Assembly (NCBI GenBank): GCA_033764315.1
Contig: JANRJA010000119.1
Coordinates: 1-40,308 of the forward strand
Length of the DNA stretch: 40,308 nucleotides
Direction of reading: 5' to 3'
Source of the DNA: Oculatellaceae cyanobacterium bins.114
GTDB taxonomy: Bacteria > Cyanobacteriota > Cyanobacteriia > Elainellales > Elainellaceae
The notes under the pieces are model-generated. The model was given only the letters and a program-made list of their open reading frames with translations. It searched no databases and was not told the origin of the DNA. Positions within the stretch are counted from its first letter, which is position 1. Every line of letters starts with the position of its first letter. Shown in pieces: positions 18,746-39,724 of this stretch. The position numbers and the translations under genes are program-made.

Positions 18746-18760
18746 GAGCCAATCTGCTGC

Positions 18761-19810: not shown

Positions 19811-19869
19811 TGTTCTTCTCCAAATTAAATAAGGGTTATTAACTAAACACGATGTACAACTAAAATTTC

Positions 19870-20800: not shown

Positions 20801-20854
20801 ATATAACAATCGCTTTAAGCAAATTAATGTAATTTCATTGGTAGTCCTCAACAA

Positions 20855-20891
20855 GTAAGGATGTGCCCCGCGCTGCGGGGCACATCCTTAC
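20855..20891. repeat. Perfect 17-bp inverted repeat
   Basis: GTAAGGATGTGCCCCGC-gct-GCGGGGCACATCCTTAC. Confidence 0.9.
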
Positions 20892-21027
20892 CCCAAAATC
20901 ATTACTTTTAGAGAAATACCATTTCATTAAAGTAATTTCATCAAAATTACTGGTAGAAATAGCCTAAACGATGTCACCGCTAACGCTCTTGTTACTTAAA
21001 AAACTCAACATATCTAGAGGCGAGTTC

Positions 21028-21198
21028 TTATGATCCAAACTTCTGTTTGGCTTGCTCATACACCTCAACCGTAATTTGAGTTGCGCCTAACTCCTGCGCT
21101 AACTTCTCAATTTTTTTACGAGCAGCCGGACGCACAAAAAAAGGAATTTCCTTTAGACGGGCTTCGGCTTCGGGTGTCCATTCCACTGCACTACTCAT
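21028..21198 (-). CDS. Stand-alone PCP_red (ChlB/BchB C-terminal-like) microprotein, 56 aa; absent from the ORF track
   Basis: Manual translation: MSSAVEWTPEAEARLKEIPFFVRPAARKKIEKLAQELGATQITVEVYEQAKQKFGS*. W-x-x-EA...L..IPFFVR...E..A...IT..V...AK is the PCP_red signature. Confidence 0.88.
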   Translation of the reverse strand: MSSAVEWTPEAEARLKEIPFFVRPAARKKIEKLAQELGATQITVEVYEQAKQKFGS

Positions 21199-21278
21199 AT
21201 CACTGCGATCGCCATATACAACTTCTCTACTTTACCTGGGTTCGCCTACGCATCCAATGCAGGGTTAAAGGGTGCGAT

Positions 21279-22151: not shown

Positions 22152-22166
22152 AAAACTTAGGGTTTT

Positions 22167-22230
22167 GAAAAGACAAGGTTGTGAAAAGACAAGGTTGTAA
22201 AAAGACAAGGCTGTGAAAAGACAAGGCTGT
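22167..22230. repeat. 4 x 16-bp tandem repeat (RAAAAGACAAGGYTGT)
   Basis: Units start at 22167, 22183, 22199 and 22215. Confidence 0.92.
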
Positions 22231-22513
22231 GAGAACACGATGTAGTGAGCGTTACTTCCAGGCTACACATTAAGGCTCATTTTGTGGCTCATTTTATGGC
22301 AATCCTTCTCAATTCAGCGATGGATAAGAGGAGTTGACCGTTCCCTCAGTTGACTCTGGTAAACCACTTTAGCCACAATCCGCAGCCAAGGGTGTGCCAT
22401 CCTGCAACTGGCTTCAACAGTTCAGGCTAGTCAACCCACTATTTCAAAAGATGATCACAGGAGTGCTGGCACAGCGCAAAATCAGCGATCGCTCATCTTC
22501 AACTACATCCCGG

Positions 22514-23359
22514 TCAATTGCCGCCATATTTAACGGCAAGGCAGTTCAGTTCTTGTTGCATTTGGTGACGCACCTGCTCATAGCAGTCATCAACATAGGG
22601 GCGATCGCGAGCCGCATCCACCCCATAGCGATCAAAGTAGATTGGCGTACCGATCCGCGTTGCGATCGGGCAAGGCCAGGGAACATTGGGTAACGGCCCA
22701 ATGGCAAGCCCCCAAGGAAGACCCAGGTAAATGGGAAAAGTCTCAGGATCAATACCAAACAACCAGGGCATGCCCCGTTCGTGGAGTTGCTGCATCAAGG
22801 GATAGATGTTGGCTAACACTACCAGCGTATCGTGGGCACCCCAGGAGACCATAGGAATGATAGGCAGGTGGCGTTGAAGTGCAATTTTGATAAAGCCTTT
22901 GCGATTTGCCAGATGGATCTGATCGCGTTGGTAAAACGGTCGAAAGACATCTTGAGCACCACCAGGATAAACCAAAATACTGGCATGGCGGTCAAGGGCA
23001 GCCAACGCCATTTTAGGATGAGCCGCGATCGCTCCGGTGCGTTCTGCCATAAAAGCTAAGGGAGGGTAGACTTTCCATACATGAGGATGCATCAGACCAT
23101 AGACAAGTCGATCTGTACCAAATCGCTTAAACCAGTCATAGAGCATCATGAACATATCAGGAGCCGCAAATCCACCATTGTGAGATCCGACAAACATCAC
23201 CTGACCATCGGGAATCTGGTTCCACCCTTCAGTCTGGACATGAAAGTAGTGTTCATAGAACCAGGCCCATAGCGGCTGAAAGGATTGAATCAGGTCAGGA
23301 TTACGCAGATCTAATGACCAACCGGGACGATGCGTTGCCATGTAACCGTAACTTTTCAT
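22514..23359 (-). CDS. PlsC/DGAT2-like acyltransferase (possibly Slr2103-like)
   Basis: VGSHNGGFAAPD (H...D block), YPGG, RKGFIKIAL, PIIP blocks. Confidence 0.8.
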   Translation of the reverse strand: MKSYGYMATHRPGWSLDLRNPDLIQSFQPLWAWFYEHYFHVQTEGWNQIPDGQVMFVGSHNGGFAAPDMFMMLYDWFKRFGTDRLVYGLMHPHVWKVYPPLAFMAERTGAIAAHPKMALAALDRHASILVYPGGAQDVFRPFYQRDQIHLANRKGFIKIALQRHLPIIPMVSWGAHDTLVVLANIYPLMQQLHERGMPWLFGIDPETFPIYLGLPWGLAIGPLPNVPWPCPIATRIGTPIYFDRYGVDAARDRPYVDDCYEQVRHQMQQELNCLAVKYGGN

Positions 23360-23580
23360 CTAACAGTATTTGCTAACCATACTCTAGACAGATGCATTTT
23401 TCATTTTTGAGAGGCGATCGCCATTGACAGCCGTTTTATCCAAACCTTTCACCGCCCTTTCACCGCCAAGTAACTCACCCTGTCGGGCTAAATTTGGCTG
23501 AAATGGAGGCATGATCAGCCCAACCAATTCAGATTGGTATAGGTTTTAGTTTTTAAACACGAGATGCAAGTTAGGAGTTT

Positions 23581-23647
23581 AGATCCCCGGTTGCTGTGAC
23601 GCAAATCCAGACTACTTTGAGGATGCTGAATGAGCAACCGGGGATCT
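23581..23647. repeat. 15-bp inverted repeat element
   Basis: AGATCCCCGGTTGCT ... AGCAACCGGGGATCT. Confidence 0.8.
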
Positions 23648-23726
23648 GGGAGACAGTCGCACATAGGGTTTTTCAAGGTCAAACGTATGGCCGTTAAATC
23701 AGCAGAGTCAAGCCATGTTGATAAAG

Positions 23727-23768
23727 TGTATTGAAAAATACAGTTTTTCTTTTATGACTCTATATCCT
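23727..23768 (+). promoter_or_regulatory. NtcA-activated promoter: TGTA-N8-TACA box plus TAN3T -10 element
   Basis: TGTATTGAAAAATACA at 23727-23742; TATCCT at 23763-23768, 21 nt after the TAC; upstream of a nitrogen-scavenging operon. Confidence 0.8.
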
Positions 23769-24076
23769 GAATACTGTATACAATAGCTTTGTAAATAGCA
23801 TCTATCTGAAATGCCTCAATTCAACGTCGTACATAGTTCTCTAATGCCTCACACAACTCACACCTGAGCGATCGCGGTCTTGCTGATCGCCAGTGATTAA
23901 AGTGTTTAGAAGTTAGTTATGGCATTATTCTGTGAGGTGCAGCGTTAATTAGTCAAACCAATCTGACAATTCATAAAGTTCATAAAGTATTTAACGATTC
24001 AAACGATTAAGAGAAATCAAAATATTGTCTAAAGAGCAACCGACTTGACCACATTTAGCAGGCAATTCAAGCAATT

Positions 24077-25237
24077 ATGTATCACCTCAAGGTTGTCATT
24101 ATTGGGGCAGGCATTGGTGGGTTAACCACCGGAATCGCCCTTCATCAGGCGGGCTATCAAGTCGAGATTTACGATCGAGTTAGTCAACTGCGCCCAGCAG
24201 GGGCGGGCATTTCACTCTGGTCTAATGGGGTCAAGGTGCTCAATCGGCTGGGGTTGGGCGACAAGATCGCCAAAATCGGCGGGCAGATGGATCGAATGCA
24301 ATACATCCGCTACACCAACGAGTTGTTGAACGATATTGACCTGCATCCCTTGATTGAAACGGTTGGACAACGCCCCTATCCGGTTGCACGAACTGACTTG
24401 CAGCAGATGTTGTTAGAGGGGTTTCCAGGAGAGGTCAAGCTCAATTCTAAATGCGTTGGGGTTGAACAGGATGGTCAAAGTGTCACGGCAATTTTTGAAA
24501 ATGGACATCGGGCAACAGGGGATGTGTTAATTGCGGCGGATGGCGTTCGCTCGATTATCCGCAATCAGCTTTTAGGAGAGCCAATTCAGCCTCGCTATGC
24601 TGGGTATGTCAACTACAACGGTCTCGTGCCTGTCAGCGATGATCTGGGTGATAAAAACTCTTGGAGCATTTATGTCGGGGAACACAAGCGCGTTTCCATG
24701 ATGCCTGTCGGGGGCGATCGCTTCTACTTCTTTTTTGATGTGCCCTTACCCAAAAGCACAGAACCGCATCCTGATGGCATTCAGGTCGAGTTAACTCACT
24801 ATTTTCAAGGCTGGTGTCAGCCAGTTCAAACGTTGATTCAACGGCTTGATCCGGCTCAAACCAATCGGTTAGAGATTCATGATGTCGAACCCTTTCAGCA
24901 GTTTACACAAGGCAGAGTGGCATTGTTGGGCGATGCTGCCCACAGCACTACGCCAGACTTAGGGCAGGGCGGTTGTCAAGCGATGGAAGATGCGGAGGTG
25001 TTAACGCGCTATCTGCTCACCACCAATTTAGGCGTTGCCGATGCCCTCAAACGCTATGCCGCTGAACGGGCTGAACGGGCTAATGCGATCGTCTTAAAAG
25101 CCCGCAAACGCGCCGATCAGATCCACGGCAAAGACCCGGCTATTACAGAAGCCTGGTATGCCCAGTTGCAAACCGAACCCCCCACCGAAGTGACAGGGGC
25201 GATCGCCAAAACCATTTTAGGAGGCCCCCTGCGATAA
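24077..25237 (+). CDS. hpxO: FAD-dependent urate hydroxylase
   Basis: GAGIGG, GAGISLWSNG, ADG, RYAGYVNYNG, GDAAHSTTPDLGQGGCQAMED, C-terminal ILGGPL; clustered with uraH and uraD. Confidence 0.9.
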   Translation: MYHLKVVIIGAGIGGLTTGIALHQAGYQVEIYDRVSQLRPAGAGISLWSNGVKVLNRLGLGDKIAKIGGQMDRMQYIRYTNELLNDIDLHPLIETVGQRPYPVARTDLQQMLLEGFPGEVKLNSKCVGVEQDGQSVTAIFENGHRATGDVLIAADGVRSIIRNQLLGEPIQPRYAGYVNYNGLVPVSDDLGDKNSWSIYVGEHKRVSMMPVGGDRFYFFFDVPLPKSTEPHPDGIQVELTHYFQGWCQPVQTLIQRLDPAQTNRLEIHDVEPFQQFTQGRVALLGDAAHSTTPDLGQGGCQAMEDAEVLTRYLLTTNLGVADALKRYAAERAERANAIVLKARKRADQIHGKDPAITEAWYAQLQTEPPTEVTGAIAKTILGGPLR

Positions 25238-25239
25238 GC

Positions 25240-25380
25240 CAAGGATAAAGGCTAAAGGATGAACAATAAACATTAGAGTTGCCCTTTTATCCCTTATCCT
25301 TCATCCTTCAGCCTTTATTTCTCATCCTTTAGCCTTTGTTTTTCGTCCTTTTCTTCTCTTTTTCCTTCTTCTTTTTTCTT
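25240..25380. repeat. Heptamer short tandem repeats in inverted arrangement (AAGGATA/AAGGCTA versus TTCATCC/TTCAGCC)
   Basis: Directly visible between hpxO and the Rieske gene; resembles cyanobacterial STRR elements. Confidence 0.7.
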
Positions 25381-25396
25381 TACTCCCTGCTTCCCT

Positions 25397-26476
25397 ATGC
25401 TAGTTACCAAACAACCTGTTTTTCAACGATTCTGGTATCCTGTCATTCCGATGCAACAGTTAGCCGATGGGCCGCAAGCGTTTGAGCTATTGGGGCAACC
25501 CATTGTGGTGTGGCTCGACGCTGAGGGCAACCCTGCGGCAGTGCGCGATCGCTGTTGTCATCGCACCGCCAAATTGTCGTTAGGCAAAGTGATCGATGGC
25601 AAGTTGGCCTGTGCTTATCACGGGTGGGAATTCAACGGCACAGGAGCCTGCGTCCATGTTCCCCAGTCCAAGGATGGCTCCATTTCCCCCAGCTATAAAG
25701 TCACGGCTTATCACTGCACCGAGCGTTATGGCTATGCCTGGGTGTGTTTAGGAGAACCACTGACTGATATTCCTGCGATCGCAGAAGCGACTGACCCATC
25801 GTTTCGCTTAATTCACGAGTTTTATGAACCGTGGGCCTGTGCGGGTTTACGGGTGATGGAGAACGAATTAGACCTGGCGCATCCTACCTTCGTCCACACC
25901 ACCACCTTTGGTAGTGAAGAGCACCCAACTCCTGATTTCGTAGAAGTCACAGAGACCGACTTGGGAATTCATGTGAGTGCCACATTAGGAGTGGTCAATC
26001 CATCATTGCAACAGCAGAACTTGAAGATGGAGGACACCATCACCTATCGCACATTAGATATGGATTGGATCTTGCCATTCACCATTCGTTTACGGATCAA
26101 CTATCCCAACGGCATGTCTCATATCATTGTGAATACAATGACTCCCATTAATGATTCAACATCGCAAATGGTGCAGTTTTGTTTACGTAACGACACCGAA
26201 GTCGATACTAAAGCGAGTGATGTGATCGCGTTTGATCGGGCTGTGACATTGGAAGACAAACGTATTTTAGAATCAACTGATTACGATGTGCCTCTCGCAT
26301 TAAATGCAGAAGAGCACATGTTCACAGACAAACCTGGCATTGTTATTCGCAAAAAGATTGCAGCGTTGTTAAAAGCACATGGTGAAGTAGAACAAACGAA
26401 GCATCAATCCACTTCTGAAATACAACCAGCGAGTTACAGTGAAGCTAGTGAAACACGAGTGAAACAGTTGATTTAG
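25397..26476 (+). CDS. Rieske non-heme iron oxygenase (VanA/HpxD/Ndm-like), candidate (hypo)xanthine hydroxylase
   Basis: Rieske ligands DRCCHR...CAYHGW; mononuclear Fe motif ENELDLAHPTFVH...ED; purine operon context. Confidence 0.85.
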   Translation: MLVTKQPVFQRFWYPVIPMQQLADGPQAFELLGQPIVVWLDAEGNPAAVRDRCCHRTAKLSLGKVIDGKLACAYHGWEFNGTGACVHVPQSKDGSISPSYKVTAYHCTERYGYAWVCLGEPLTDIPAIAEATDPSFRLIHEFYEPWACAGLRVMENELDLAHPTFVHTTTFGSEEHPTPDFVEVTETDLGIHVSATLGVVNPSLQQQNLKMEDTITYRTLDMDWILPFTIRLRINYPNGMSHIIVNTMTPINDSTSQMVQFCLRNDTEVDTKASDVIAFDRAVTLEDKRILESTDYDVPLALNAEEHMFTDKPGIVIRKKIAALLKAHGEVEQTKHQSTSEIQPASYSEASETRVKQLI

Positions 26477-26491
26477 AGACAAACACGATCA

Positions 26492-26854
26492 ATGTCAGGA
26501 AAATTAACCACTCATGTCCTGGACACCGCACACGGATGTCCTGCCGCTGCGATGACCATTGAACTGTGGTCTATCGATCTCCACTCACCCGATAAACAAC
26601 TCCTTAAAACCATTCAAACCAACGCCGATGGACGCAGCGATCGCCCCCTCTTAGCCGATGCTGAGTTGCAAGTGGGCATCTATGAGTTGATATTTGTGGT
26701 AGGCGAGTACTTTGCTCAATGGGAGAAAACCTTACCACAACCTCCGTTTCTCGATCGCATTCCAATTCGCTTTGGCATCGCCGATCCAACCGTTCATTAC
26801 CACGTTCCGTTGCTAGTTTCTCCCTGGTCATATAGCACCTACCGTGGTAGTTAA
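26492..26854 (+). CDS. uraH: 5-hydroxyisourate hydrolase (transthyretin-like)
   Basis: [21 protein letters not shown]-terminal YRGS. Confidence 0.97.
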
Positions 26855-26899
26855 TTCAGCATTTTTTTAACGTTTCTGTAGGCTTAACTGCCTATAGTA

Positions 26900-27547
26900 G
26901 TGGTGTTGCTATTAGCAGAACCCTCAGTCGTGATCTTTTATGTATTAGAGCTATTAGGAGTTGCAGTTTTTGCAGTCAGCGGCGCATTAGCGGCAGGTCG
27001 CAAAAGTCTCGATTTACTAGGTGTCGTTGTGATTGCTGTCGTCACAGCGATCGGGGGCGGAACCTTGCGCGATGTGTTGCTCGATCGCCATCCCATTTTT
27101 TGGATTGAAAATCCGCTTTATTTACTTGTTATTCTTGTCTCAGCCGCTCTCACCCTGATCTATACTCAATTTCGCCAACCTCCTAACAGAGCCTTATTGA
27201 TCGCGGATGCCTTTGGGCTGGCCTTGTTTGCCATCAGTGGTGCTCAGTTATCAGAACGGGCAGATCTGACCGACATCATTGTGGTCTTGATGGGAACTAT
27301 CACAGGCGTTGCAGGGGGTGTCATTCGAGATGTTATTCTCGCCGAAATCCCCCTGATTTTGCGTCGAGGCAATATCTATGCCACAGCCGCGATCGCCGGA
27401 ATCATCGTCTATCTCATCCTGCAACATATTGGGGTCGATCGCTCCATTGCCTCACTGATTGGCATGACCACGATCGCCACTCTGCGACTGATCGCTATCA
27501 CCTGGGGCATCACACTTCCCGTCTATAGCCTGCCGCATGACCCATAA
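26900..27547 (+). CDS. UPF0126/TRIC family membrane protein
   Basis: Internal duplication FAVSGA..GGGTLRD and FAISGA..GGVIRD; about 7 hydrophobic helices. Confidence 0.9.
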
Positions 27548-27564
27548 CTCATGCTCACAAGCAT

Positions 27565-27592
27565 TCAAAATCCAAAATCCAAAATCCAGAAT
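27565..27592 (+). repeat. CAAAATC heptamer tandem repeat
   Basis: tcaaaatccaaaatccaaaatccagaat. Confidence 0.7.
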
Positions 27593-27600
27593 TCTCACCA

Positions 27601-28107
27601 ATGCCATACACCATCCCCGATCTCAACAAGATGAACCAGACCGACTTTGTTACGGCGATCGGAGATGTGTTTGAACATACCCCCGCGATCGCCGCTGTTG
27701 CCTGGAGCCAACGTCCTTTTACTGATGTCACCCATCTCCATCAAACACTCGTGGCAGTCATGCAAAGTCTCGATCTAGCCGAGCAGTTAGCCTTGATTCA
27801 GGCGCACCCCGACCTGGGGAGCAAGGCAAAGATGGCAGAAGCCTCGGTTCAAGAGCAAATTGGAGCCGGGTTAAAGCAACTCTCTGCCGATGAATATGAA
27901 CGGTTTTTGCACCTCAATCAGTCTTATAAAGACAAGTTTGGGTTTCCGTTTATCATTGCCGTCAAACATCACACCAAAGCCAGCATCTTAGATGAATTTG
28001 ATCGCCGTTTACTGAACTCAACTGAGGCAGAAATGCAGCAAGCGATCGCTGAAATCGCTGAAATCGCTCGTTTTCGGCTCTTGGAGCGGGTGGCATCTCA
28101 ACCATAA
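27601..28107 (+). CDS. uraD: OHCU decarboxylase
   Basis: FEH, AHPDLG, SVQEQ..AGL, Y..KFGFPFIIAV, IARFRL. Confidence 0.95.
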   Translation: MPYTIPDLNKMNQTDFVTAIGDVFEHTPAIAAVAWSQRPFTDVTHLHQTLVAVMQSLDLAEQLALIQAHPDLGSKAKMAEASVQEQIGAGLKQLSADEYERFLHLNQSYKDKFGFPFIIAVKHHTKASILDEFDRRLLNSTEAEMQQAIAEIAEIARFRLLERVASQP

Positions 28108-30586: not shown

Positions 30587-31939
30587 CTAGACGGTGACAG
30601 GCACCTTTGCCCCAAAATAGGCATCTTGCTCTGCCCGTAGCTTGTCACACAAGCGTCCTTCAGGAATTTCTACGTCGTCATAGGTGAGTGCTTGATCTTT
30701 AGCGATATCCCGCTTCAGGCGGCAACCCTCGGCTAAACCGATGGGCAGCAAACGCTCTGCTTGAGTGATTTCAGCCTTTTCACACTCTCCATAGGTCATG
30801 TAATAGCCCAAGCCGTCCAGGGTTTCGCCTGCTTTGAGATCGATCTTAGCCATCGTAATGACATCTACCTTGGGTCCGGCGATCGGAGCCATCACCGCGT
30901 CCTTAAAGAGCACCACCCGTGCAACGGATAGGGGCACTTCAAAGTGGCAGAGGTGATAGGGAGTGTAGAAGCTGTAGAGCGGGCCAGTACCCAACTTATA
31001 AAGGTTGAGGTAGTGCTGTTGTTTGGGGTCGTCATGCGTACCAAACACATATACCCCAGGGCCGGGACGAACCCCGACGACGTAATCAACAATGCCACCC
31101 AACTCCTTCAGTTCATCGACATCATACAGTTTGGTGCAGTCGTCGATGTGACCGGTGTAGTTGAGGTTAAACTTCTCGATTAACTCGTCTTTGTGGCGGT
31201 TAAAGTCATAGCCATACATGCCCCGTTTGGCAACCGTCATGCCTGTGGCGTTAGCGACGATCGCCTGTTCAAAGGAGATCTTGGTGCCATCGGCAAAACT
31301 CGTCACCATGTGGGCTTTTTGTCCCCACTGTTTGGCGAAACCCTCTTGGGTGGTGGGGTTGCGGTAAGGGTCTTGCAGACCTTTGATATTGCCGCAGAGC
31401 AGGGGGGTAACGCCAATGCTCTTGACAAACCGATAGAGGTTCATCTGCACACCGGGTTGGTCGCCATCGCACGCCGAGAGCACAACTCCCGCTTTGTCAG
31501 CATAGACTTTGAGGATGGGGCCAATGGTGCCGTCGAGTTCAGCATTCATCAAGACCACATGCTTTTTGTGGGCGATCGCCTCTAGCACCACCTGAGCACC
31601 AAACTCGATCGCGCCTGTCACTTCCACGATCGCGTCAATGCCCTCAGCCTGACAGATCAGCATCGCATCATCGGTAACGGCATATTTGCCTTGGGCGATC
31701 GCCGCTTCTAATTCACCAACGGTTTTGACTTCGCGCACATCCTCAACACCCGCCTCGGTATAAGCACGCTTTGCCCCATCAATGCTGCGATTGAAAATCG
31801 CCACCAATTCCATTCCCGGAACCGAGTTGACAATCTGATTACAGATGCCTCGTCCCATAAAGCCAGCACCGATCATGCCGACCCGCACCGGATTTCCCGC
31901 TTCAGCACGGGCTTTTAACGCTGTATCAACAATAAACAT
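30587..31939 (-). CDS. NAD(P)-dependent oxidoreductase with C-terminal SAF domain (homoserine-dehydrogenase-like, StrU-like)
   Basis: Rossmann GAGFMG; NAELDGTIGP, GDQPG, DGTK, PYHLCHFE; SAF tail AKIDLKAGETLDG..LPIGL..LTYDDV. Confidence 0.85.
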   Translation of the reverse strand: MFIVDTALKARAEAGNPVRVGMIGAGFMGRGICNQIVNSVPGMELVAIFNRSIDGAKRAYTEAGVEDVREVKTVGELEAAIAQGKYAVTDDAMLICQAEGIDAIVEVTGAIEFGAQVVLEAIAHKKHVVLMNAELDGTIGPILKVYADKAGVVLSACDGDQPGVQMNLYRFVKSIGVTPLLCGNIKGLQDPYRNPTTQEGFAKQWGQKAHMVTSFADGTKISFEQAIVANATGMTVAKRGMYGYDFNRHKDELIEKFNLNYTGHIDDCTKLYDVDELKELGGIVDYVVGVRPGPGVYVFGTHDDPKQQHYLNLYKLGTGPLYSFYTPYHLCHFEVPLSVARVVLFKDAVMAPIAGPKVDVITMAKIDLKAGETLDGLGYYMTYGECEKAEITQAERLLPIGLAEGCRLKRDIAKDQALTYDDVEIPEGRLCDKLRAEQDAYFGAKVPVTV

Positions 31940-31941
31940 GA

Positions 31942-32487
31942 TTAAACTCCTACTTTGGCGGGTTCAAACGGTGCCCAGGCTGCATCTTTATCAGAAATCA
32001 CAGCAACAGGCATAGGCCACTCAATGTTAAAGGCAGGGTCATCATAGCGAATCCCACGCTCATAGCCAGGAGTGTAAAATTCACCCACTTGATAACCCAC
32101 TTCTGCGCCATCGGTCAGTGCCAGATAACCATGAGCAAACAACTCAGGCACATAGAGTGCTCGACGATTATCTTCGGTCAACTCTACCCCGATGTATTCC
32201 ATATAGGTAGGAGAGTCAGGTCGCAGGTCAATAATGACATCGTAGATCGCACCACGAGTACACCGCACTAGCTTGGTTTCTGCCGCCGGAGGAATCTGGT
32301 AATGCATTCCCCGCATCGTGCCTGCTTTGTGGTTAAATGACAGGTTGCATTGCGCCACGGTGGGCTTTAGCCCGTGAGCTTCAAACTCGTTAGCACAAAA
32401 AGTGCGGGCAAAGAAACCGCGACTGTCTTCCCGGTGCTCTAGATCCAAAATAAAAGCACCTTTGAGTTTGGTTTCAGTAAAAATCAT
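31942..32487 (-). CDS. rfbC: NDP-4-keto-sugar 3,5-epimerase (RmlC/RfbC cupin, StrX-like)
   Basis: DSRGFF, RGMHYQ, ETKLVRC, DLRPDSPT, AHG, Y; 4-bp overlap with the upstream gene. Confidence 0.9.
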   Translation of the reverse strand: MIFTETKLKGAFILDLEHREDSRGFFARTFCANEFEAHGLKPTVAQCNLSFNHKAGTMRGMHYQIPPAAETKLVRCTRGAIYDVIIDLRPDSPTYMEYIGVELTEDNRRALYVPELFAHGYLALTDGAEVGYQVGEFYTPGYERGIRYDDPAFNIEWPMPVAVISDKDAAWAPFEPAKVGV

Positions 32488-33512
32488 GGCTTGCTCCAGA
32501 AGAAGTCTTTATCAATTTGTTGAGTGCGAATCAAGTATTCCAACTGTTTCAGACGAGTGAATCCTCTTGATTCAAACACGTCTTTGGTCATGTCAATCTG
32601 TTGGAACAACTTGTAGAGTTGCTCTGCGCCCCGACGAGCATTCCAATCGCACTTAAAGCCCGGTAGTTGAGTGTTGATCTTCTCAAACGAAACGCGGTAG
32701 CTGCGGTTGTCAGCCCCTTGATCGCCAAAACTCAAAGCACAATCTGGAAACACATCAGCGATGATTTCTGCAACTTCTTTAACGCGATAGTTGTTAGCCG
32801 TATCACCCACGTTAAACACTTGATTGTGAATGATGTCACGCGGTGCTTCTAACACACACAACAAGGCTTTAGCGATATCCAGCGCATGCACCAGGGGTCG
32901 CCAGGGTGTGCCATCGCTGATCATTTTGATTTCTTTGGTTGTCCAGGCAAGACCCGACAAGTTGTTCAACACGATGTCAAAGCGCATCCGGGGAGAAGCC
33001 CCAAAGGCAGTCGCATTGCGCATGAAGGTGGGCGAGAAGTTGTCGTCTGCCATGGGTTTAACGTCGCGTTCCACCAGCGTTTTGCACTCGGCGTAGGCAG
33101 TCTGAGGGTTGACAGCAGATTCCTCGGTGACATCCCCTTCCGTTGCAACGCCATACACGCTGCAAGAGGACATATAGACAAAGCGAGGCACTCCCGCTTG
33201 TTTGGCGAGTTCTGCTAACCGCACAGAGCCTTTGTGGTTGATGTCGTAGGTGATGGTGGGAGACAACTGCCCAGTGGGGTCGTTGGATAGCTCCGCCATG
33301 TGAACGATCGCATCAACCCCTGCTAAATCTTCAACCGCAATTTCACGAATGTCTTTGTTGAGAGTTTTAGGAGTGCGATCGGTGGCGTTATAGAGCCAAC
33401 CCACCTTATAGAAACCTGTATCAACACCAATCACATCGTGTCCGTGCTCCATTAAAAGAGGAGCAAAAAGAGAGCCAAGATAGCCTTCTGTTCCAGTTAC
33501 TAATACTTTCAT
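32484..33512 (-). CDS. NAD-dependent extended SDR nucleotide-sugar epimerase/dehydrogenase (StrP-like)
   Basis: TGTEGYLG, SNDP, SSCSVYG, YAECK, DGTPWRP. Confidence 0.9.
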   Translation of the reverse strand: MKVLVTGTEGYLGSLFAPLLMEHGHDVIGVDTGFYKVGWLYNATDRTPKTLNKDIREIAVEDLAGVDAIVHMAELSNDPTGQLSPTITYDINHKGSVRLAELAKQAGVPRFVYMSSCSVYGVATEGDVTEESAVNPQTAYAECKTLVERDVKPMADDNFSPTFMRNATAFGASPRMRFDIVLNNLSGLAWTTKEIKMISDGTPWRPLVHALDIAKALLCVLEAPRDIIHNQVFNVGDTANNYRVKEVAEIIADVFPDCALSFGDQGADNRSYRVSFEKINTQLPGFKCDWNARRGAEQLYKLFQQIDMTKDVFESRGFTRLKQLEYLIRTQQIDKDFFWSKP

Positions 33513-33520
33513 GGGTATTC

Positions 33521-34732
33521 CTATACAAATGCAGGTTTTAGATGATCAGGAGCGGGAACTTTCTCTACAACTGCTTTACCAATCTCTAACGAAGAGGTGG
33601 CAGCAGGAGAGGGAGCGTTACACACATGGATGGAGTTTTCTCCTTCAACAATTAAGAAATCATCGACTAATTTGCCATCGTTCATCAGTGCTTGTGCCCG
33701 CACTCCAGCGTGAGTTGGAATCACATCTTCAGAACGGACTTCCGGAATTAAACGCTGCAAGCTTTGAACGAATGCCGCTTTACTAAAGGAGCGAACAATC
33801 TCCTTGAAGCCCTCGTCATAATGTTTCGCCGCTAATTTCCAAAATCCGGGATAGGTCATGACTTCTGCGAAGTCACGCAGGTCAATGTCGGTTTTATGAT
33901 AGCCTTCCCGCTTGAGACTCAGAACCGCATTTGGGCCCGCGTGAACGGTGCCATCGATCATGCGGGTAAAGTGAACCCCCAAGAATGGAAAGTCGGGATT
34001 AGGAACAGGATAAATTAGGCCCTTGACTAAATGCCGTTTTTCAGGAACCAGTTCGTAATATTCTCCTCGGAAGGGGACGATTTTGGCTTCTGGATCGACG
34101 TTGTTGAGTTTGGCAACGCGATCGCTGTGTAGCCCTGCACAATTGATCACAAAGCGAGTCTCAAAGTCACCATTGGTTGTCTCTAACACCTGTCCTTTAG
34201 AGGTTTTGACAATTCTCAGAACCTTGGTGTTGAGGCGCAGGTCACCCCCGTGTTCACGAATCAAGTCAGCATATTTTTGGCAGACCTTCTTGTAATCTGC
34301 GATACCCGTAGACTCGACATGAATCCCGGCGATCGCACTCACATGAGGCTCATACTCCAACACCTCTTCACCCGTAATTCGGCGCACCGGAATGCCATTT
34401 TGTAGCCCCCGTTGAAACAAATTTTCGAGGAGGGGCAACTCCTTTTCTTGAGTGGCAATAATCACCTTGCCACACACTTCATGGGGAATATTGTATTCCT
34501 GGCAAAACGCCACCATCGACTGGCAACCATCACGGCAAAACTTTGCCTTAAAGCTACCTGGTTTGTAATAGACCCCAGAGTGAATCACCCCACTGTTATT
34601 GCCAGTTTGGTGAAACGCCCAGCGACTTTCTTTTTCAAGCACTAGAATTTTGGCATCAGGATAACGCCGACCCAGTGCCATTCCGGTGGAGAGGCCAACA
34701 ATGCCACCACCAATAATTGCAAAATCGTACAT
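33521..34732 (-). CDS. lhgO: L-2-hydroxyglutarate oxidase
   Basis: GGGIVG, HQTGNNSGVIHSG, PFRGEYY, FPFLGVHFT, GPNA, AGVRAQA, NAPSPAATSS. Confidence 0.92.
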   Translation of the reverse strand: MYDFAIIGGGIVGLSTGMALGRRYPDAKILVLEKESRWAFHQTGNNSGVIHSGVYYKPGSFKAKFCRDGCQSMVAFCQEYNIPHEVCGKVIIATQEKELPLLENLFQRGLQNGIPVRRITGEEVLEYEPHVSAIAGIHVESTGIADYKKVCQKYADLIREHGGDLRLNTKVLRIVKTSKGQVLETTNGDFETRFVINCAGLHSDRVAKLNNVDPEAKIVPFRGEYYELVPEKRHLVKGLIYPVPNPDFPFLGVHFTRMIDGTVHAGPNAVLSLKREGYHKTDIDLRDFAEVMTYPGFWKLAAKHYDEGFKEIVRSFSKAAFVQSLQRLIPEVRSEDVIPTHAGVRAQALMNDGKLVDDFLIVEGENSIHVCNAPSPAATSSLEIGKAVVEKVPAPDHLKPAFV

Positions 34733-34863
34733 AGCTGTCCTGCTTGATTTGAATATTGAATTAATTTGGCTCTCTACTGGTTAACCCGACGATTCGAGTA
34801 AAACATCAGGGAAATCCCTGAGTAGCTAGGGCGTGAGCCACCCATTATTATTCCCGCTCAGTC

Positions 34864-35640
34864 TTACTGCCACACCTTCCAGGGAGCTTTATTACCTTGC
34901 CACAGCCCTTCTAAATAGTTTTTGTCCTTCAGCGTATCCATAGGTTGCCAAAAGCCATCGTGCTTAAAGGCAGAGAGATGACCATCATGAGCCAACTTCT
35001 GAAGAGGCTCTTGTTCCCAAATTGTGGAATCATCTGCAATGTAGTTAATCACCTCTGGCTCTAGCACAAAATAGCCCCCATTAATCCAGGCTCCATCTCC
35101 ACCGGGTTTTTCATGGAAGCTTTCAATTTTGGTTTGCTCTTGTCCTAGAGAAATGGCTCCAAAACGACCAGGAGGTTGAACCGCCGTTAACGTGGCTAAC
35201 CCACCTTGAGTTTTGTGAAATTCGACTAATTTCGTAATATCAACATTGCTTACACCATCTCCGTAGGTAAAGCAAAAGGTTTCGTTGCCAATGTGCTCAC
35301 GCACCCGCTTTAAGCGGCCTCCAGTGAGCGTAGATTCACCCGTATCTACCAGCGTTACGCGCCACGGCTCAGCATAACCAGAGTGAATATTCATTTGATT
35401 AAATCGCATATCAAATGTGACATCTGACATACGCAAGAAGTAATTCGCAAAATACTCCTTGATGACGTAACCTTTGTAGCCACAACAGATAATGAAATCG
35501 TTAACTCCGTGGGCAGAATAAATTTTCATGATGTGCCAAAGAATGGGCTGTCCACCGACTTCAACCATTGGCTTTGGTTTAATAGTAGTCTCCTCGCTCA
35601 GGCGAGTTCCCAGTCCTCCAGCCAAAATTACTGCTTTCAT
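34864..35640 (-). CDS. rfbF: Glucose-1-phosphate cytidylyltransferase (StrQ-like)
   Basis: [56 protein letters not shown]. Confidence 0.95.
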
Positions 35641-36316
35641 GCGATTAACCTCATGGCTCACAAAGGGGTCAGAATCATTACTGATCTACAGTGAGGTTAG
35701 CAAGAACTTCAAAGATAGGCTATGAAGTCCCAGTGAATAAACTGATTATCTATGTAAAAACTGCATGAAAGCTCTTGATCAGAGGCTGAAAGATAAATAG
35801 GACTGATTTAACAGTAGAACCGCAGGATTGAAGCAACAGTTGGCGAACAAGTTGCAAAGCGATGGTGCACATATGACCGAGATCACCATCACTTTACTTA
35901 AGCTTTACAGATTTGGTAACAAAAATAGCAAATGTATAAAGAGTGCATAAAACAAATTCTTGCCCTATAGATTTCTTTTCTGCGTATTCGTTACTGTAGG
36001 ACTCACTGATGCGTGACTTTACGCAGAGATTATTTTTCTCATGATCGTGAGTAATAGCTCAATGTAGACAATGTGTTTTCACTGTCTTAACTGAGTTCAA
36101 TCTAGGTTCTCTCAGGTTTATATTCTAATTTTCATCCAAGGGTTGCTTCTCATTTCTGAGGTAGTACTAATCAGGATGATTTAAGTCACAGTTTCAGGGT
36201 GGTTGAACGTTGGTTCCCAATCCAGCTTTAGGCTTTGGGCTGCTGTCTCATAGCAGTCTAAAACTTGACTCTGAAAATTCGATCGTGTTGTGCAGAGTTA
36301 GAAGTGGATTTACATT

Positions 36317-39300
36317 ATGTCGTCAAATTTTAGAACTACAGTAGAGCAGTTGGCCACAGGTGCCAACTTGAGTCGTAACTTAGAACGCTCTGATGCCTTC
36401 ACATCAACGAGCTTAACTTCTGGTTTTAGTTTTAGATCCAGTGCTGACGCGGCAAAAGCAGTCACCGGTACAGGGCGCGATCGCATCGCTCCTCGTGCTG
36501 CGTTGGCCACTGGAGCCGTCACTACAGCAGGAGCCACCAATCATACTTTTCGCGTGGTCTTTAGCGATCGTAGTGGTTTAAATCGTCGCACCATTCGTTC
36601 TGGCAATTTACTTGTCACTGGACCCAACGGCTTTAGACAAGTAGCAACATTGGTGGGTAAAGCCGTTTTTAATCGTCCAGGTACACGGGCTACAGCAACT
36701 TACCGCATCAATGCACCGGGTGGAACCTGGGACTCTGGAGATAACGGAAACTACACCATTGCTGTCCTTCGTAATAAAGTGAGCGATATCAATCGCAACT
36801 TTGTCAGAGCAGGAGCATTAGGGCGTGGATTTCAAGTCAATGTGGTTAATCCTAACCAAAGCCCAACGGCTGTCTTAGGCACTGGCAATTTAGGTGGCAA
36901 TAACTACACCTTCAACATTACTTATTCTGACGACGTTGCAATTAATGCTGGCAGCTTAGATAACGGCGATATTCAAGTCACTGGACCAGGCGGTTTTAGC
37001 CAGTTTGCTCAGTTTGTTAGTGTTAACCCCGCAGGTGACGGCACTCCTCGCACAGCAACGTATCGGGTTAATTCACCAGGAGCATCCTGGACTGCCGCAA
37101 ATAACGGGACTTACACGATAGCTGTGGTCGCCAATCAGGTGAGTGATAACGCAGGGGCTAGTGTGGCAGCAAGTAACCTGGGCACTTTCGCCGTTGAATC
37201 GGGTCGGATTCCACCTACAGCGACTGTGACCGCAAGCAACATCACCAGCACTGGCGCAACAACTTACGACTTCACCGTTACCTATACTGACAGCGACTCT
37301 GTGAATGCATCCAGCCTTGGTGCAGGAGATATTCGCATTACTGGACCGAATGGCTTTAACGAACTCGCTTCATTTGTAAGTGTTGATGTTAATAGCAACG
37401 GCACACCCCGTGTTGCAACTTACCGCTTCAATGCTCCAGGAGGTCGTTGGGATGGCCCCGATGCAGGAACCTATACCATCGCGATGGAAGCCAATCAGGT
37501 CACTGACACTGTCGGCAACGCCGTTCCAGTGGGCAGCCTGGGCACCTTTGATGTGACAATTGAGTCAACCGCGCCCACGGCAACTCTCACCGCAGGACCT
37601 GTCTTTAACTTGGGTAGTGGGGCTTCCTACATCACGGTTAACTATGCCGATGCCGCTGGAATTACCCCTAACTTTGGTTCTCGTAACGTGCGGGTGACAG
37701 GGCCTAATGGATATAACCAGTTCGCTGATTTCGTCAGATCAGACGGATCAGGTAACGTCACTTACCGCATCAATGCGCCAGGGGGCATTTGGGATGGCAC
37801 GGTGGCTAAAGATGGCACCTACACCGTGGCACTGCAAGCAGGACAGGTGGTTGACCTGAATGGTAACTCAGCCCAAACCACCATCGGCGAGTTTCAGGTT
37901 CGTCTAGCCCCCTTCCGGGTTGAGGCAGAAACACTGACCCTGACCAACTATATTGTTGAGCAAGCCGTCAATACAGGGGTTCCCTTCTTCCCTGGAGTTG
38001 CATCAAACAATGGCTTGATTCGTCTGGCTGGCAACTCCGGCACTAACATCACAGGGAGCGCAACCACTACCTTCAGCGGTCCTGCTGGAACCTATAACTT
38101 GGTGGTGGGCTACTTTGACGAAAACGATGGAATTTCTAGAGTGCAAGTGCGGGTTAATGGTGCACTCGTAACTGGAGGTGAGTGGGACTTTGATAATGAC
38201 TTTGGAGTCAGCAATGTCAGTACACAAGGCTTTGCTCGTCGTCAAGTCAGCAATGTTCAACTTACTCCTGGTGCCACGATTGAAATCCGAGGATTCCAGG
38301 TTGCTCCTGGAACCAATAGTGCTCAAGAAACAGCCCGCGTTGACTATATCGATTTTGTTCCTCAAAGCAACACAGCGGGACCTGCTAACAGCGCACTTGG
38401 CGTCATTTTAGGAACAGCCGGTGACAACACCGTCACAGGAGGAGTCAATGCTAACACTGTTGACTATTCTCAACTCGCAAACGGCATTATTGCAAAACTG
38501 GCTGATAACGAAGTGTTTAAACCCATTTATGGTGGTTTGAACACAGCTCGGATCTTGCCCGTAGGTGACTCCATCACATTAGGAGAACACAACGCCACCC
38601 CAACCTATCCCGGTGCATATCGGATTCAACTTAATACTCGATTTACTCAAGAGGCGTTAGATATCGACTATGTCGGTTCCGTTGTGCAGACGACTGTCCC
38701 TAATAACCTCCTAACTGATAAAGAGGTTGAAGCTTATCGGGGTTCGCAAGGTGGAACGCTGGAAGGTCTAACAGCGATCGCTCAAGGAGCATCGTTTGGG
38801 TCTGGGGATCCAGATGTGATTTTGTTAATGGCGGGCAGTGCTAGCTCAGGTGGCTCTCTCTTCCAAATGAAGGCAAATCTAGAGGCACTCATCGCTGCCA
38901 TTACCACCAAGCTACCCGACACTAAATTGTTAGTGGCATCCATTCCGCCAACGAACACATTCTCAATTCCAGCCGATCCAGGTAGTCCTTTCATTCCTGG
39001 AGATCCCAATGCAGTTCCACCCATTCCTGATACTCCTGCGGTGCCGCCCAGCCCAGCGGCACAAAATGCAGATGATCTGGCTCGGACAGCTCGAACACTC
39101 GATTACAATTCACTCATTTCGGGCATCGTCGGCAATGCAACAGCTCAAGGTTACAACGTATCCTTTGTTGACATTGGCAGTCAGTTAACTAACAGCGACC
39201 TGATTGAAGATGGCGTTAACCTCAAAGCATCAGGTCACACCAAAGTTGGCAATGCTTGGTATAGTGCCATCATCGACAAAGACACCCTGAGCAACATTCA

Positions 39301-39724
39301 AAATGTGGTAGGCACAGCCCTGATCGACACCATTGTGGGCAATGCCAACGCCAACATTATCGAGGGTGGTCTTGGTGCAGACAACTTATCAGGTGGCAAC
39401 GGTGCTGATACCTTTGTGTATCGCAGTACGGCTGAAGGTGGCGATACTATCACTGACTTCACTGCAACTGACTTTATCCAGATCTCGGCCTCTGGCTTTG
39501 GCGGAGGGTTGGTCGCAGGAACAGCGTTAACAAACGGCACTGCATCGGCAACAGGCACCTTTGTGAATGGCAATACCGCTGTTGGCAATGGACCAAATTT
39601 CTTGTACAGCGGTGGTGTATTGAGATTTGATGCAGACGGTGCAGGAGCACAAGCCGCGGTGACGATCGCCACTCTAACAGGTGCGCCAGCTCTGACAGCT
39701 GCTCGAATCAACATCGTCGCCTAA
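36317..39724 (+). CDS. Large secreted repeat protein: 4 beta-sandwich repeats, CBM-like domain, SGNH-fold domain and RTX/serralysin-like C-terminus
   Basis: Four repeats of TGP(N/G)G(F/Y)...TYR(I/V/F)N(A/S)PG..W...GxYT; EAE...YFDENDG...ARVDYIDF CBM-like domain; ILPVGDSIT; GGLGADNL/GGNGADTF nonapeptides and DTITDF; no N-terminal signal peptide. Confidence 0.88.
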   Translation: MSSNFRTTVEQLATGANLSRNLERSDAFTSTSLTSGFSFRSSADAAKAVTGTGRDRIAPRAALATGAVTTAGATNHTFRVVFSDRSGLNRRTIRSGNLLVTGPNGFRQVATLVGKAVFNRPGTRATATYRINAPGGTWDSGDNGNYTIAVLRNKVSDINRNFVRAGALGRGFQVNVVNPNQSPTAVLGTGNLGGNNYTFNITYSDDVAINAGSLDNGDIQVTGPGGFSQFAQFVSVNPAGDGTPRTATYRVNSPGASWTAANNGTYTIAVVANQVSDNAGASVAASNLGTFAVESGRIPPTATVTASNITSTGATTYDFTVTYTDSDSVNASSLGAGDIRITGPNGFNELASFVSVDVNSNGTPRVATYRFNAPGGRWDGPDAGTYTIAMEANQVTDTVGNAVPVGSLGTFDVTIESTAPTATLTAGPVFNLGSGASYITVNYADAAGITPNFGSRNVRVTGPNGYNQFADFVRSDGSGNVTYRINAPGGIWDGTVAKDGTYTVALQAGQVVDLNGNSAQTTIGEFQVRLAPFRVEAETLTLTNYIVEQAVNTGVPFFPGVASNNGLIRLAGNSGTNITGSATTTFSGPAGTYNLVVGYFDENDGISRVQVRVNGALVTGGEWDFDNDFGVSNVSTQGFARRQVSNVQLTPGATIEIRGFQVAPGTNSAQETARVDYIDFVPQSNTAGPANSALGVILGTAGDNTVTGGVNANTVDYSQLANGIIAKLADNEVFKPIYGGLNTARILPVGDSITLGEHNATPTYPGAYRIQLNTRFTQEALDIDYVGSVVQTTVPNNLLTDKEVEAYRGSQGGTLEGLTAIAQGASFGSGDPDVILLMAGSASSGGSLFQMKANLEALIAAITTKLPDTKLLVASIPPTNTFSIPADPGSPFIPGDPNAVPPIPDTPAVPPSPAAQNADDLARTARTLDYNSLISGIVGNATAQGYNVSFVDIGSQLTNSDLIEDGVNLKASGHTKVGNAWYSAIIDKDTLSNIQNVVGTALIDTIVGNANANIIEGGLGADNLSGGNGADTFVYRSTAEGGDTITDFTATDFIQISASGFGGGLVAGTALTNGTASATGTFVNGNTAVGNGPNFLYSGGVLRFDADGAGAQAAVTIATLTGAPALTAARINIVA

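Follow-up and report, generated by a model that had tools for sequence, protein, structure and literature searches.

A described precedent for the pathway considered here involves Cj1427 of Campylobacter jejuni, a C4-dehydrogenase with a ping-pong mechanism reported by the Raushel laboratory in 2023. This enzyme was isolated with non-exchangeable reduced nicotinamide adenine dinucleotide (NADH), which is reoxidized by 2-oxoglutarate with formation of L-2-hydroxyglutarate, and Cj1430 is reported to epimerize its 4-keto product at C3 and C5, after which Cj1428 reduces C4 to give an L-gluco heptose (PMC10680097); a second paper supports this account of Cj1427 (PMC7949155). For WbpB of Pseudomonas aeruginosa, tightly held NADH and a reduction of 2-oxoglutarate to D-2-hydroxyglutarate have been reported, and the loss of the D-2-hydroxyglutarate dehydrogenase PA0317 lowers O-antigen, apparently through inhibition of WbpB by D-2-hydroxyglutarate (PMC8651671). 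Here, we describe a module of five genes in a stretch of 40,308 nucleotides from Oculatellaceae cyanobacterium bins.114 (contig JANRJA010000119.1 of assembly GCA_033764315.1), the whole of which is called the window in the following. We see an even chance that these five genes provide a cytidine diphosphate (CDP)-activated L-hexose which keeps its 6-hydroxyl group, with the 2-oxoglutarate used for its synthesis being recycled by an L-2-hydroxyglutarate oxidase (LhgO).

According to the open reading frame (ORF) list of the window, the module consists of five co-oriented ORFs at 30587..35661, all on the minus strand, among them one for a short-chain dehydrogenase/reductase (SDR) of the extended type. 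Read from the first gene to the last, it is composed as follows:

34864..35640, minus strand: rfbF, glucose-1-phosphate cytidylyltransferase (equivalog TIGR02623 at 461.5 bits, cut-off 300.25, full length 1-257; PF00483 at 76 bits)
34733..34863, minus strand: 131-bp gap between rfbF and lhgO, with a terminator-like hairpin inside (34821..34806)
33521..34732, minus strand: lhgO, flavin adenine dinucleotide (FAD)-dependent L-2-hydroxyglutarate oxidase/dehydrogenase (equivalog NF008726 at 617.3 bits, cut-off 299)
32484..33512, minus strand: extended SDR, putatively of the Cj1427 type (PF01370 at 154.9 bits; no NCBIfam cut-off passed)
31942..32487, minus strand: RmlC-type nucleoside diphosphate (NDP)-4-ketohexose 3,5-epimerase (TIGR01221 at 174.5 bits, cut-off 155.75; PF00908 at 213.6 bits)
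30587..31939, minus strand: NAD(P) oxidoreductase of the DLO1 family, 450 aa (Rossmann, PF21135 DRL_cat and SAF domains)

The rfbF ORF (34864..35661) opens with a GTG at 35661, and the ATG at 35640 gives a 258-aa form which fits the first position of the model. A preliminary description made from the letters of this DNA had reported five minus-strand genes, the last four of them spaced by 8 bp, by an overlap of 4 bp and by 2 bp. The ORF coordinates confirm this, with 8 bp between lhgO and the SDR gene (33513-33520), an overlap of 4 bp between the SDR and RmlC genes (32484-32487) and 2 bp between the RmlC and DLO1 genes (31940-31941), and the motifs SNDP, SSCSVYG and DGTPWRP listed there are indeed present in the translated SDR. 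Related loci were collected with an alignment of 5 sequences of the last (DLO1) protein, scanned against a single genome for each species, yielding at least 601 matching stretches, of which 297 were confirmed; all comparative counts given here rest on the best 80 of these 297 relatives, with more distant clusters lying outside. The arrangement of the module is not due to chance, as the same gene order recurs in most of the 80 loci, which represent six phyla. Promoter and terminator sites were no commoner in the region than in shuffled sequences (6 terminator-like sites found versus a mean of 6.0), and no Rfam family was matched anywhere in the window. On the plus strand, four ORFs of 88-130 aa run antisense to the module genes (31193..31585, 32830..33096, 32886..33218 and 33511..33786) and were taken as chance ORFs.

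We propose that the extended SDR is a CDP-glucose C4-dehydrogenase of the Cj1427 type, which would oxidize its substrate without dehydration. Its PF01370 match and the motifs GTEGYLG, SSCSVYG and YAECK, which are conserved across the family, mark the protein as an extended SDR. It scored 23.8 bits against the CDP-glucose 4,6-dehydratase model TIGR02622 (cut-off 278.45) and 45.8 bits against the model TIGR01181 (cut-off 365.1) for the dehydratase of deoxythymidine diphosphate (dTDP)-glucose, and it was also below the cut-offs for the GalE and RmlD models, so that every dehydratase, epimerase and reductase equivalog failed. When the sequences were aligned, SSCSVYG of the window SDR corresponded to T(S/T)DK(C/A)Y(E/D) in the RfbG proteins of four related loci (L062, L031, L055 and L076) and to NTNSGYG in Cj1427. 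The SDR carries Cys-Ser at the site of the Asp-Lys found in these true dehydratases, which we take to be the acid/base pair and the hallmark of the dehydratase family and which on that basis is absent from the SDR. The failed equivalogs and the replacement of Asp-Lys by Cys-Ser rule out an identity as RfbG or RmlB, bearing out the earlier impression that the protein is unlike RfbG.

The closest PDB match of the SDR was Cj1427 itself (6vo6), which reached 100.8 bits over the full length with the single sequence versus 64.7 bits for the next entry, and 157.8 versus 98.9 bits with a profile of 12 SDR family members. Alignment revealed a motif SPRMR(F/L)D common to the SDR and Cj1427 (SPRMRFD vs. 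SPRMRLD), which is missing from the next two PDB matches and from RfbG. A Foldseek search with the model of the SDR (predicted local distance difference test score, pLDDT, 79.5) returned chains of 6vo8 and 6vo6, both Cj1427 of C. jejuni, at ranks 1-5. The fold search agrees with the sequence comparison but separates Cj1427 only weakly from GalE-type enzymes, and the fold alone is not decisive. A CDP-tyvelose 2-epimerase (presumably PDB entry 1orr) was discarded as a candidate, since it was not among the best 60 of the 80 and of the 74 PDB matches listed. As for the partners expected from the Cj1427 precedent, the epimerase is present with its 4-bp overlap, and the candidate C4-reductase, DLO1, comes from another family than the Cj1428 type. 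By analogy with Cj1427, the SDR may hold its NADH tightly and have it recycled by 2-oxoglutarate to L-2-hydroxyglutarate; the linked lhgO gene and the common SPRMR(F/L)D motif hint at this indirectly.

The product of lhgO passes the NF008726 equivalog over its full length (positions 1-389 of 389) and matches PF01266 (DAO) at 212.9 bits, with 8w75 as its top solved relative (355.9 bits over residues 2-392). Because Cj1427-type enzymes make one L-2-hydroxyglutarate per sugar oxidized, such an enzyme can be given a role in the pathway, and lhgO, to which the earlier description had assigned none, is the most informative gene of the module, with the recycling of 2-oxoglutarate as its likely job. 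The five window proteins and RfbG of L062 were placed in all 80 loci by tblastn, and the loci were then classed. Nine of the 80 end at a contig edge and were left out, and the other 71 were distributed as follows:

LhgO and family SDR: 52 loci (L076 also with RfbG)
RfbG only, no LhgO and no SDR: 9 loci
rfbF followed directly by RmlC and the last gene, no LhgO and no SDR: 3 loci
none of the front-end genes: 1 locus
family SDR without an LhgO-like gene, none at an E-value of 10 or less: 6 loci
LhgO without SDR: 0 loci

LhgO and SDR are encoded on one strand in 52/52 loci with both genes, and the distance between them is less than 700 bp in 44 and 743-1269 bp in 6 of these, the remaining 2 having rfbF inside the gap. 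Cyanobacteriota account for 44 of the 52 loci, Actinomycetota for 2, and Deinococcota, Gemmatimonadota and Chloroflexota for 1 each, with 3 loci lacking a usable phylum label. The pair occurs in rearranged gene orders in Deinococcota, Actinomycetota, Gemmatimonadota and Chloroflexota (L069, L070, L073, L079 and L076). The LhgO-like genes of L069, L070, L079, L061, L012 and L076 pass NF008726 with 533-628 bits, and that of L073 is borderline (296.3 vs. 299). Relatives of the last gene were also met in 63 plasmid records, 3 of which were inspected. A Deinococcus taeanensis plasmid carries rfbF, an annotated lhgO, the SDR gene, rfbC and a gene for a 'SAF domain-containing protein', the last four joined by 4-bp overlaps, and on a Gemmobacter plasmid a distant LhgO-like flavoprotein is encoded two genes from rfbF-SDR (35% identity; 187.7 bits against NF008726, under the cut-off). 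Five of the six loci with an SDR and no LhgO-like gene are alphaproteobacterial, and their SDRs are 30-62% identical to that of the window and show the same motifs; the sixth, L051, has degenerate motifs. LhgO in cis is common, then, but not required.

Further insight into the function of the pair came from loci in which a true CDP-glucose 4,6-dehydratase takes its place. In the nine loci of the RfbG class (L031, L047, L048, L055, L059, L062, L063, L065 and L066), RfbG occupies the slot of LhgO and SDR, whereas RmlC and DLO1 are retained; the RfbG proteins of L055, L062 and L031 pass TIGR02622 at 515-525 bits. When mapped onto a quick maximum-likelihood tree of the DLO1 proteins, the RfbG state changed 4 times, at least 2 of these changes being forced by well-supported branches, and 0/500 shuffles gave a number as low as the observed 4. 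LhgO and SDR vanish together at each swap. Their joint replacement by RfbG argues that the pair supplies what the 4,6-dehydratase supplies, namely a CDP-4-ketohexose for RmlC, and because RmlC and the last gene stay after the swap, the simplest reading is that the last gene carries out the following step, the reduction at C4. No second candidate reductase gene was present in the clusters of the four RfbG loci scanned or annotated (L031, L055, L062 and L083), and the DLO proteins of the RfbG loci nest among the others on the tree and are 71-77% identical to the window protein. The product of this twin module should be a CDP-6-deoxy-L-hexose; we know of no such donor from the literature. The third plasmid inspected, from Persicobacter, contains rfbG, two RmlC-type genes and a gene for a SAF protein followed by glycosyltransferase genes, and no RmlD. 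The RfbG twin module, with L083 as a further case beside the nine loci, occurs among Leptolyngbyaceae and part of the Nostocales as well as on a Bacteroidota plasmid. A locus of an Anaerolineae metagenome-assembled genome (MAG; L076, 5226-9087) has RfbG plus an adjacent pair of SDR and LhgO genes, grouped together on one strand, with RmlC and DLO1 on the other.

The RmlC-type enzyme passes the TIGR01221 equivalog, and its top PDB matches are dTDP-4-dehydrorhamnose 3,5-epimerases (up to 150 bits), suggesting that it inverts C3 and C5 of a CDP-4-keto sugar. The last protein of the module had been described before as a Rossmann and SAF oxidoreductase. Both domains were found, but that description was incomplete, as the protein belongs to the DLO1 family and contains a DRL catalytic domain (PF21135 DRL_cat at 175.9 bits, PF01408 at 31.7 bits and SAF at 22.2 bits vs. 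a cut-off of 21). Its top match is the protein of Oscillatoria sp. FACHB-1407, a member of a non-heterocystous genus, at 98%, and the orthologs of Nostocales are 73-81% identical. Its sole close solved relative is the Brucella type II DXR (DXR-II or DRL; 3upy), which matched with 238.4 bits over the full length and in the same domain order. In the alignment to 3upy, the window protein has Ile and Tyr in place of the Brucella residues Thr229 and His250. Both residues are important according to Carretero-Paulet et al. (2013, PMC3847144), who describe Thr229 as invariant among DXR-II enzymes and as exchanged for Leu, Ile or Val in the DLO1 clade; DLO1 and DLO2 are called 'previously uncharacterized' there, and four representatives did not complement a DXR mutant. 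Table S3 of that paper applies the label DLO1 to proteins of Nostoc sp. PCC 7120, A. variabilis, N. punctiforme, 'Nostoc azollae', Gloeobacter and Cyanothece PCC 7425, and also of Deinococcus maricopensis, Kineococcus and Streptomyces griseus NBRC 13350. A normal DXR appears in its rows for the cyanobacteria, D. maricopensis, Kineococcus and S. griseus, and not in those for Chloroflexus, Coxiella and Methanosphaerula (PMC3847144). Based on the Ile at position 229 and on the orthologs labeled DLO1, we assign the last gene to the DLO1 family, the sister of DXR-II.

The DLO1 gene adjoins RmlC in 77/80 loci, the other three (L008, L026 and L050) showing no RmlC. As DLO1 is the sole reductase candidate of the module, we propose that it acts as the C4-ketoreductase. 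A full-library search with the DLO1 protein gave 3454 hits at an E-value of 0.001 or less and 150 representatives, of which 7 long ones were scanned. Among these, a protein of 722 aa (P0194) has RmlD fused to a DRL catalytic domain, and one of 630 aa (P0210) joins part of RmlC to such a domain; these fusions with RmlD and RmlC place the DLO-like family in sugar-nucleotide metabolism. A third protein of 1276 aa (P0122) has R3H and SUZ domains, a pairing of eukaryote type, in front of a DLO part which is 57% identical to the window protein.

Put together, these assignments suggest the following route. RfbF, as its family assignment indicates, would produce CDP-D-glucose from cytidine triphosphate (CTP) and glucose-1-phosphate. 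The SDR would then oxidize this sugar at C4 with its tightly bound NAD and pass the hydride on to 2-oxoglutarate, giving CDP-4-keto-D-glucose and L-2-hydroxyglutarate, which LhgO would convert back to 2-oxoglutarate while delivering the electrons to quinone or oxygen. With LhgO, 2-oxoglutarate would be needed in catalytic amounts, and an inhibitory by-product would be kept from building up. The RmlC-type enzyme, whose family is clear from its equivalog match, would invert C3 and C5 of the 4-keto sugar, and DLO1 would reduce C4 with NAD(P)H. Starting from the gluco configuration, oxidation at C4, inversion at C3 and C5 and reduction at C4 lead to the L-manno or L-talo configuration, while L-glucose needs an extra inversion at C2. 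The product is therefore likely to be CDP-beta-L-mannose or CDP-beta-L-talose, as judged by analogy; dTDP-L-rhamnose and dTDP-6-deoxy-L-talose are the 6-deoxy parallels. The earlier proposal of an oxidation, a C3/C5 epimerization and a reduction to a 6-hydroxy L-hexose of the L-glucose/L-mannose type thus still gives the best reading, with Cj1427 as the nearest solved relative of the SDR, except that it now points to L-manno or L-talo and not to L-gluco. Glycosyltransferases from elsewhere in the genome would use the donor; in the heterocyst polysaccharide (HEP) island of Nostocales, they are encoded beside the module.

This island offers a functional context for the genes. For Anabaena sp. 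PCC 7120, a table published in 2015 gives alr2825 as glucose-1-phosphate cytidylyltransferase, alr2826 as hypothetical, alr2827 as epimerase/dehydratase, alr2828/29 as unknown, alr2830 as rfbC, alr2831 as NAD(P) oxidoreductase, alr2832 as glycosyltransferase, alr2834 as hepC and alr2835 as hepA (PMC4390870). HEP synthesis is reported to depend on this island in three papers (including PMC4390870). The annotated order alr2825-alr2831 matches the module of the Nostocales loci, in which SDR and RmlC are separated by two GT2 genes and a PhyH-like gene. Mutants in alr2825, alr2827 and alr2831 are reported to lack HEP. In the Nostocales-type locus L012, a GT4 gene comes after the module, and behind it Wzz-like, Bac_transf and ABC-transporter genes and more GT4 genes. 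The PhyH-like protein of L012 (8248-9078) belongs to the 2-oxoglutarate/Fe(II) dioxygenase family and would be a second user of 2-oxoglutarate in the HEP island. The module of the window differs from the island in being a tight block of five biosynthetic genes with no glycosyltransferase, hepA or hepC nearby; neither a glycosyltransferase nor a Bac_transf or ABC exporter gene was found near the module, whereas in L012 the sugar-nucleotide genes are joined to glycosyltransferases, hepC and hepA. A further difference lies in the naming, since alr2826 stands as 'hypothetical' in the 2015 table, not as LhgO. The earlier statement that no characterization of such a module was known from cyanobacteria needs to be qualified, as by the 2015 table this gene set stands at the head of the Anabaena HEP island, on which HEP synthesis reportedly depends; it holds insofar as no biochemistry was found for it. 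The HEP of A. variabilis is described as a backbone in which glucosyl and mannosyl units are 1,3-linked, bearing xylosyl, galactosyl, glucosyl and arabinosyl ends, and no D or L configuration is given in that description (PMC4148955).

Several observations weigh against the proposed CDP-L-hexose pathway, and some of them would suit other readings. There is no biochemistry for any protein of the module, the account of heterocyst polysaccharide sugars lists glucose, mannose, xylose, galactose and arabinose but mentions no rare one (PMC4148955), the SDR and Cj1427 are just 27-31% identical, and GalE-type epimerases come close behind Cj1427 in the fold ranking (8.2e-22 vs. 5.5e-23). The loci with LhgO and SDR are mostly cyanobacterial and probably share the arrangement by descent. 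An independent-pairs test offered 2 contrasts when restricted to well-supported branches and 5 when all branches were used, and the sign test (p about 0.5) was underpowered; LhgO followed the SDR in every contrast and never the opposite, but the contrasts are too few for significance. This shortage is compatible with a reading in which the sugar pathway is the same and LhgO is a mere housekeeping neighbor, with the SDR exchanging NAD+ freely or using another acceptor. It would also agree with the absence of a nearby LhgO-like gene from 6/58 loci with a family SDR, even at an E-value of 10 or less, and with the 131-bp gap and its hairpin between rfbF and lhgO, which is weak evidence, such sites occurring at shuffle frequency. 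We regard a mere neighbor as unlikely, because 0/71 untruncated loci have LhgO without SDR, both genes are lost whenever RfbG takes over, and their linkage is kept in rearranged clusters of four other phyla and, with 4-bp overlaps, on the Deinococcus plasmid. A distant LhgO-like gene is likewise linked in the Gemmobacter cluster, and lhgO of the window ends 8 bp from the start of the SDR gene.

The proximity of the GalE-type epimerases, which are the next-best relatives of the SDR, also fits the idea that the SDR serves as both oxidase and reductase in a transient oxidation at C4, with LhgO clearing the L-2-hydroxyglutarate formed after an escape of the keto sugar, and with DLO1 acting at, e.g., C2 or C3 toward an amino sugar, L-glucosamine for instance. 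A DLO1 protein is present in S. griseus, a producer of an L-glucosamine unit, and the RmlD fusion P0194 puts a DLO-like domain beside a classical 4-reductase, so that the DLO-like enzyme may carry out another step in some lineages, which also counts against the proposed role of DLO1. Yet in the RfbG loci without SDR, DLO alone is left to reduce the 4-keto-6-deoxy sugar, the DLO proteins of these loci are nested in the tree and as similar to the window protein as stated above, and there is no aminotransferase in the window, which makes this version quite unlikely in our view. An exchange of roles, in which DLO1 would be a 2-oxoglutarate-using dehydrogenase like WbpB and the SDR the final reductase, could draw on the weak N-terminal Gfo/Idh/MocA match of the DLO protein (PF01408, 31.7 bits), as WbpB is a Gfo/Idh/MocA protein and recycles its NADH with 2-oxoglutarate. 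We consider it very improbable, because LhgO tracks the SDR and not DLO (DLO is present in 81/81 loci including the window, and LhgO in 0/13 SDR-less loci), DLO must act as a reductase in the RfbG loci, and WbpB gives the D enantiomer whereas LhgO belongs to an L-specific family. The full-length match of 238 bits to the Brucella DRL, its best solved relative, would suggest that the last gene is a DXR-II for isoprenoid synthesis and unrelated to sugars. This is hardly conceivable and was rejected, because the replacement of Thr229 and His250 by Ile and Tyr follows the DLO1 pattern, orthologs are labeled DLO1 in cyanobacterial genomes with a normal DXR, four DLO representatives failed in DXR complementation, and the gene lies 2 bp from RmlC here and adjoins it in nearly all related loci. 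The CDP-L-hexose pathway with LhgO as recycling enzyme is the reading which we retain for the following.

The window also holds genes outside the module. No glycosyltransferase was found among 19 further ORFs scanned (those of at least 120 aa in 1..27000 plus three beyond 27000, shorter ones being left out), as had been noted earlier. The other neighbors in the window, MurJ and an OHCU decarboxylase, were dropped as module partners, as they occur in none of the related loci. The other features of the window are:

36317..39724, plus strand: divergent neighbor of rfbF, 1135 aa, the last 439 aa with a GDSL/SGNH hydrolase domain and an RTX repeat
187..8640, plus strand: chemotaxis-like set of a CheW-domain protein, a methyl-accepting protein (1221 aa, several GAF domains), a hybrid CheA-type kinase (Hpt, HATPase, CheW, receiver) and a second CheW
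9405..18170: glucan/disaccharide genes for a GH65 phosphorylase-HAD hydrolase fusion (984 aa), a GH77 4-alpha-glucanotransferase and a 1150-aa alpha-amylase-family protein
24077..28107: candidate urate-degradation genes for an FAD-binding monooxygenase, a Rieske oxygenase, a transthyretin-like HIU hydrolase, an OHCU decarboxylase and a membrane protein of the glycine transporter family

The first 696 aa of the divergent neighbor of rfbF matched no Pfam family. Homologs of its C-terminal 439 aa (34-40% identity) are encoded between RmlC and DLO1 in L007 (8778-9974) and L051 (7999-9213), and another one just after the DLO1 gene in L050 (1848-2990); the hosts are Aliterella and Chroococcidiopsis for the position between RmlC and DLO1 and a Pleurocapsa MAG for that after DLO1. 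The 1135-aa protein may be a secreted esterase acting on the glycan, outside the core of the pathway.

Much of what enters into this proposal is known already: four of the five families have a defined function, DLO1 is recognized though uncharacterized, the logic of Cj1427 has been described, and support by a 2-hydroxyglutarate dehydrogenase is in print for the D enantiomer. What appears to be new is an L-2-hydroxyglutarate oxidase hard-wired to a Cj1427-type enzyme in a CDP-hexose operon, a role for DLO1 derived from its gene context and the reading of alr2826-alr2831. A literature search, which left subscription papers outside its coverage, found nothing joining CDP-glucose with 2-hydroxyglutarate and, judged by titles and the beginnings of abstracts, nothing linking hydroxyglutarate to the heterocyst in this sense; in a broader search, the top 15 papers included none with the LhgO term.

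If the proposal is true, the DLO1 family, which was left uncharacterized when DXR-II was defined, would gain a testable function, the 'hypothetical' alr2826 and its neighbors at the head of the Anabaena HEP island would be explained, and the L-2-hydroxyglutarate that Cj1427-type dehydrogenases must make would have a disposal route. It would also predict a new donor, CDP-L-mannose or CDP-L-talose, whose 6-deoxy counterpart would come from the RfbG variant loci; to our knowledge, neither donor has been described from any organism. Since routine composition analysis is blind to L versus D, the structures of cyanobacterial sheaths, exopolysaccharides (EPS) and heterocyst polysaccharide may need re-examination. 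A much wider version appears doubtful to us. According to this version, a Cj1427-type oxidase would be wired to its own LhgO, DLO1 proteins would be non-SDR NDP-4-ketohexose reductases, StrP, StrX and StrU of streptomycin producers would perform the same chemistry, and the 'mannose' of the HEP backbone, or of the sheath or EPS of non-heterocystous relatives, would be L-mannose or L-talose. If it were true, the operon would be the founding example of a widespread CDP-L-hexose route which delivers the electrons of sugar oxidation to the respiratory chain, and glycan synthesis would depend on 2-oxoglutarate, which is the nitrogen-starvation signal that starts heterocyst development.

Compared to the known systems, the streptomycin pathway shows a likeness by description. 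The genes strP, strQ and strX are given as essential streptomycin genes outside the main cluster in a figure legend (PMC12498427). One S. griseus NBRC 13350 protein, the DLO1 listed above, matches the window protein at 32/54 of the first aligned residues (counted by eye), and no Streptomyces is among the best 80 of the 297 related loci. The Str enzyme types are presumably the same as those of the window, a likeness by description and not by sequence. The streptomycin branch differs in that it must add an amino group at C2, while the window is without an aminotransferase or methyltransferase; if true, the proposed pathway would offer a simple model of how the L-glucosamine branch of streptomycin biosynthesis, so far unsolved, may work. 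With regard to DXR-II, the window protein shares the fold and domain order of the Brucella DRL and differs in the replaced Thr229 and His250.

The WbpB/PA0317 couple and the module would have in common that the NADH of a dehydrogenase is recycled by 2-oxoglutarate and that a flavoprotein restores the 2-oxoglutarate, its loss lowering the glycan in P. aeruginosa. They differ in the D enantiomer, the attack at C3 and the uridine diphosphate (UDP)-sugar used there, compared to an L-specific oxidase encoded 8 bp from the SDR in the window; no linkage between the two P. aeruginosa genes was seen in that account. The Cj1427 pathway follows the logic proposed for the module, namely a non-dehydrating extended-SDR C4-dehydrogenase, an RmlC-type 3,5-epimerase and a C4-reductase which lead to an L-sugar with a 6-hydroxyl group. 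It uses a guanosine diphosphate (GDP)-heptose where the window would use a CDP-hexose, and an SDR reductase where the window has DLO1 as the reductase candidate plus a built-in lhgO gene; we know of no L-2-hydroxyglutarate oxidase partner in the capsule cluster of C. jejuni. The dTDP-L-rhamnose pathway (RmlA-RmlD) shares with the module the proposed sequence of nucleotidyltransferase, 4-keto intermediate, 3,5-epimerization by RmlC and C4 reduction, whereas the module dispenses with 4,6-dehydration and RmlD and uses CDP as the nucleotide. The RfbG variant loci (L031, L055, L062 and others) represent the closer, 6-deoxy analog of the dTDP-L-rhamnose route.

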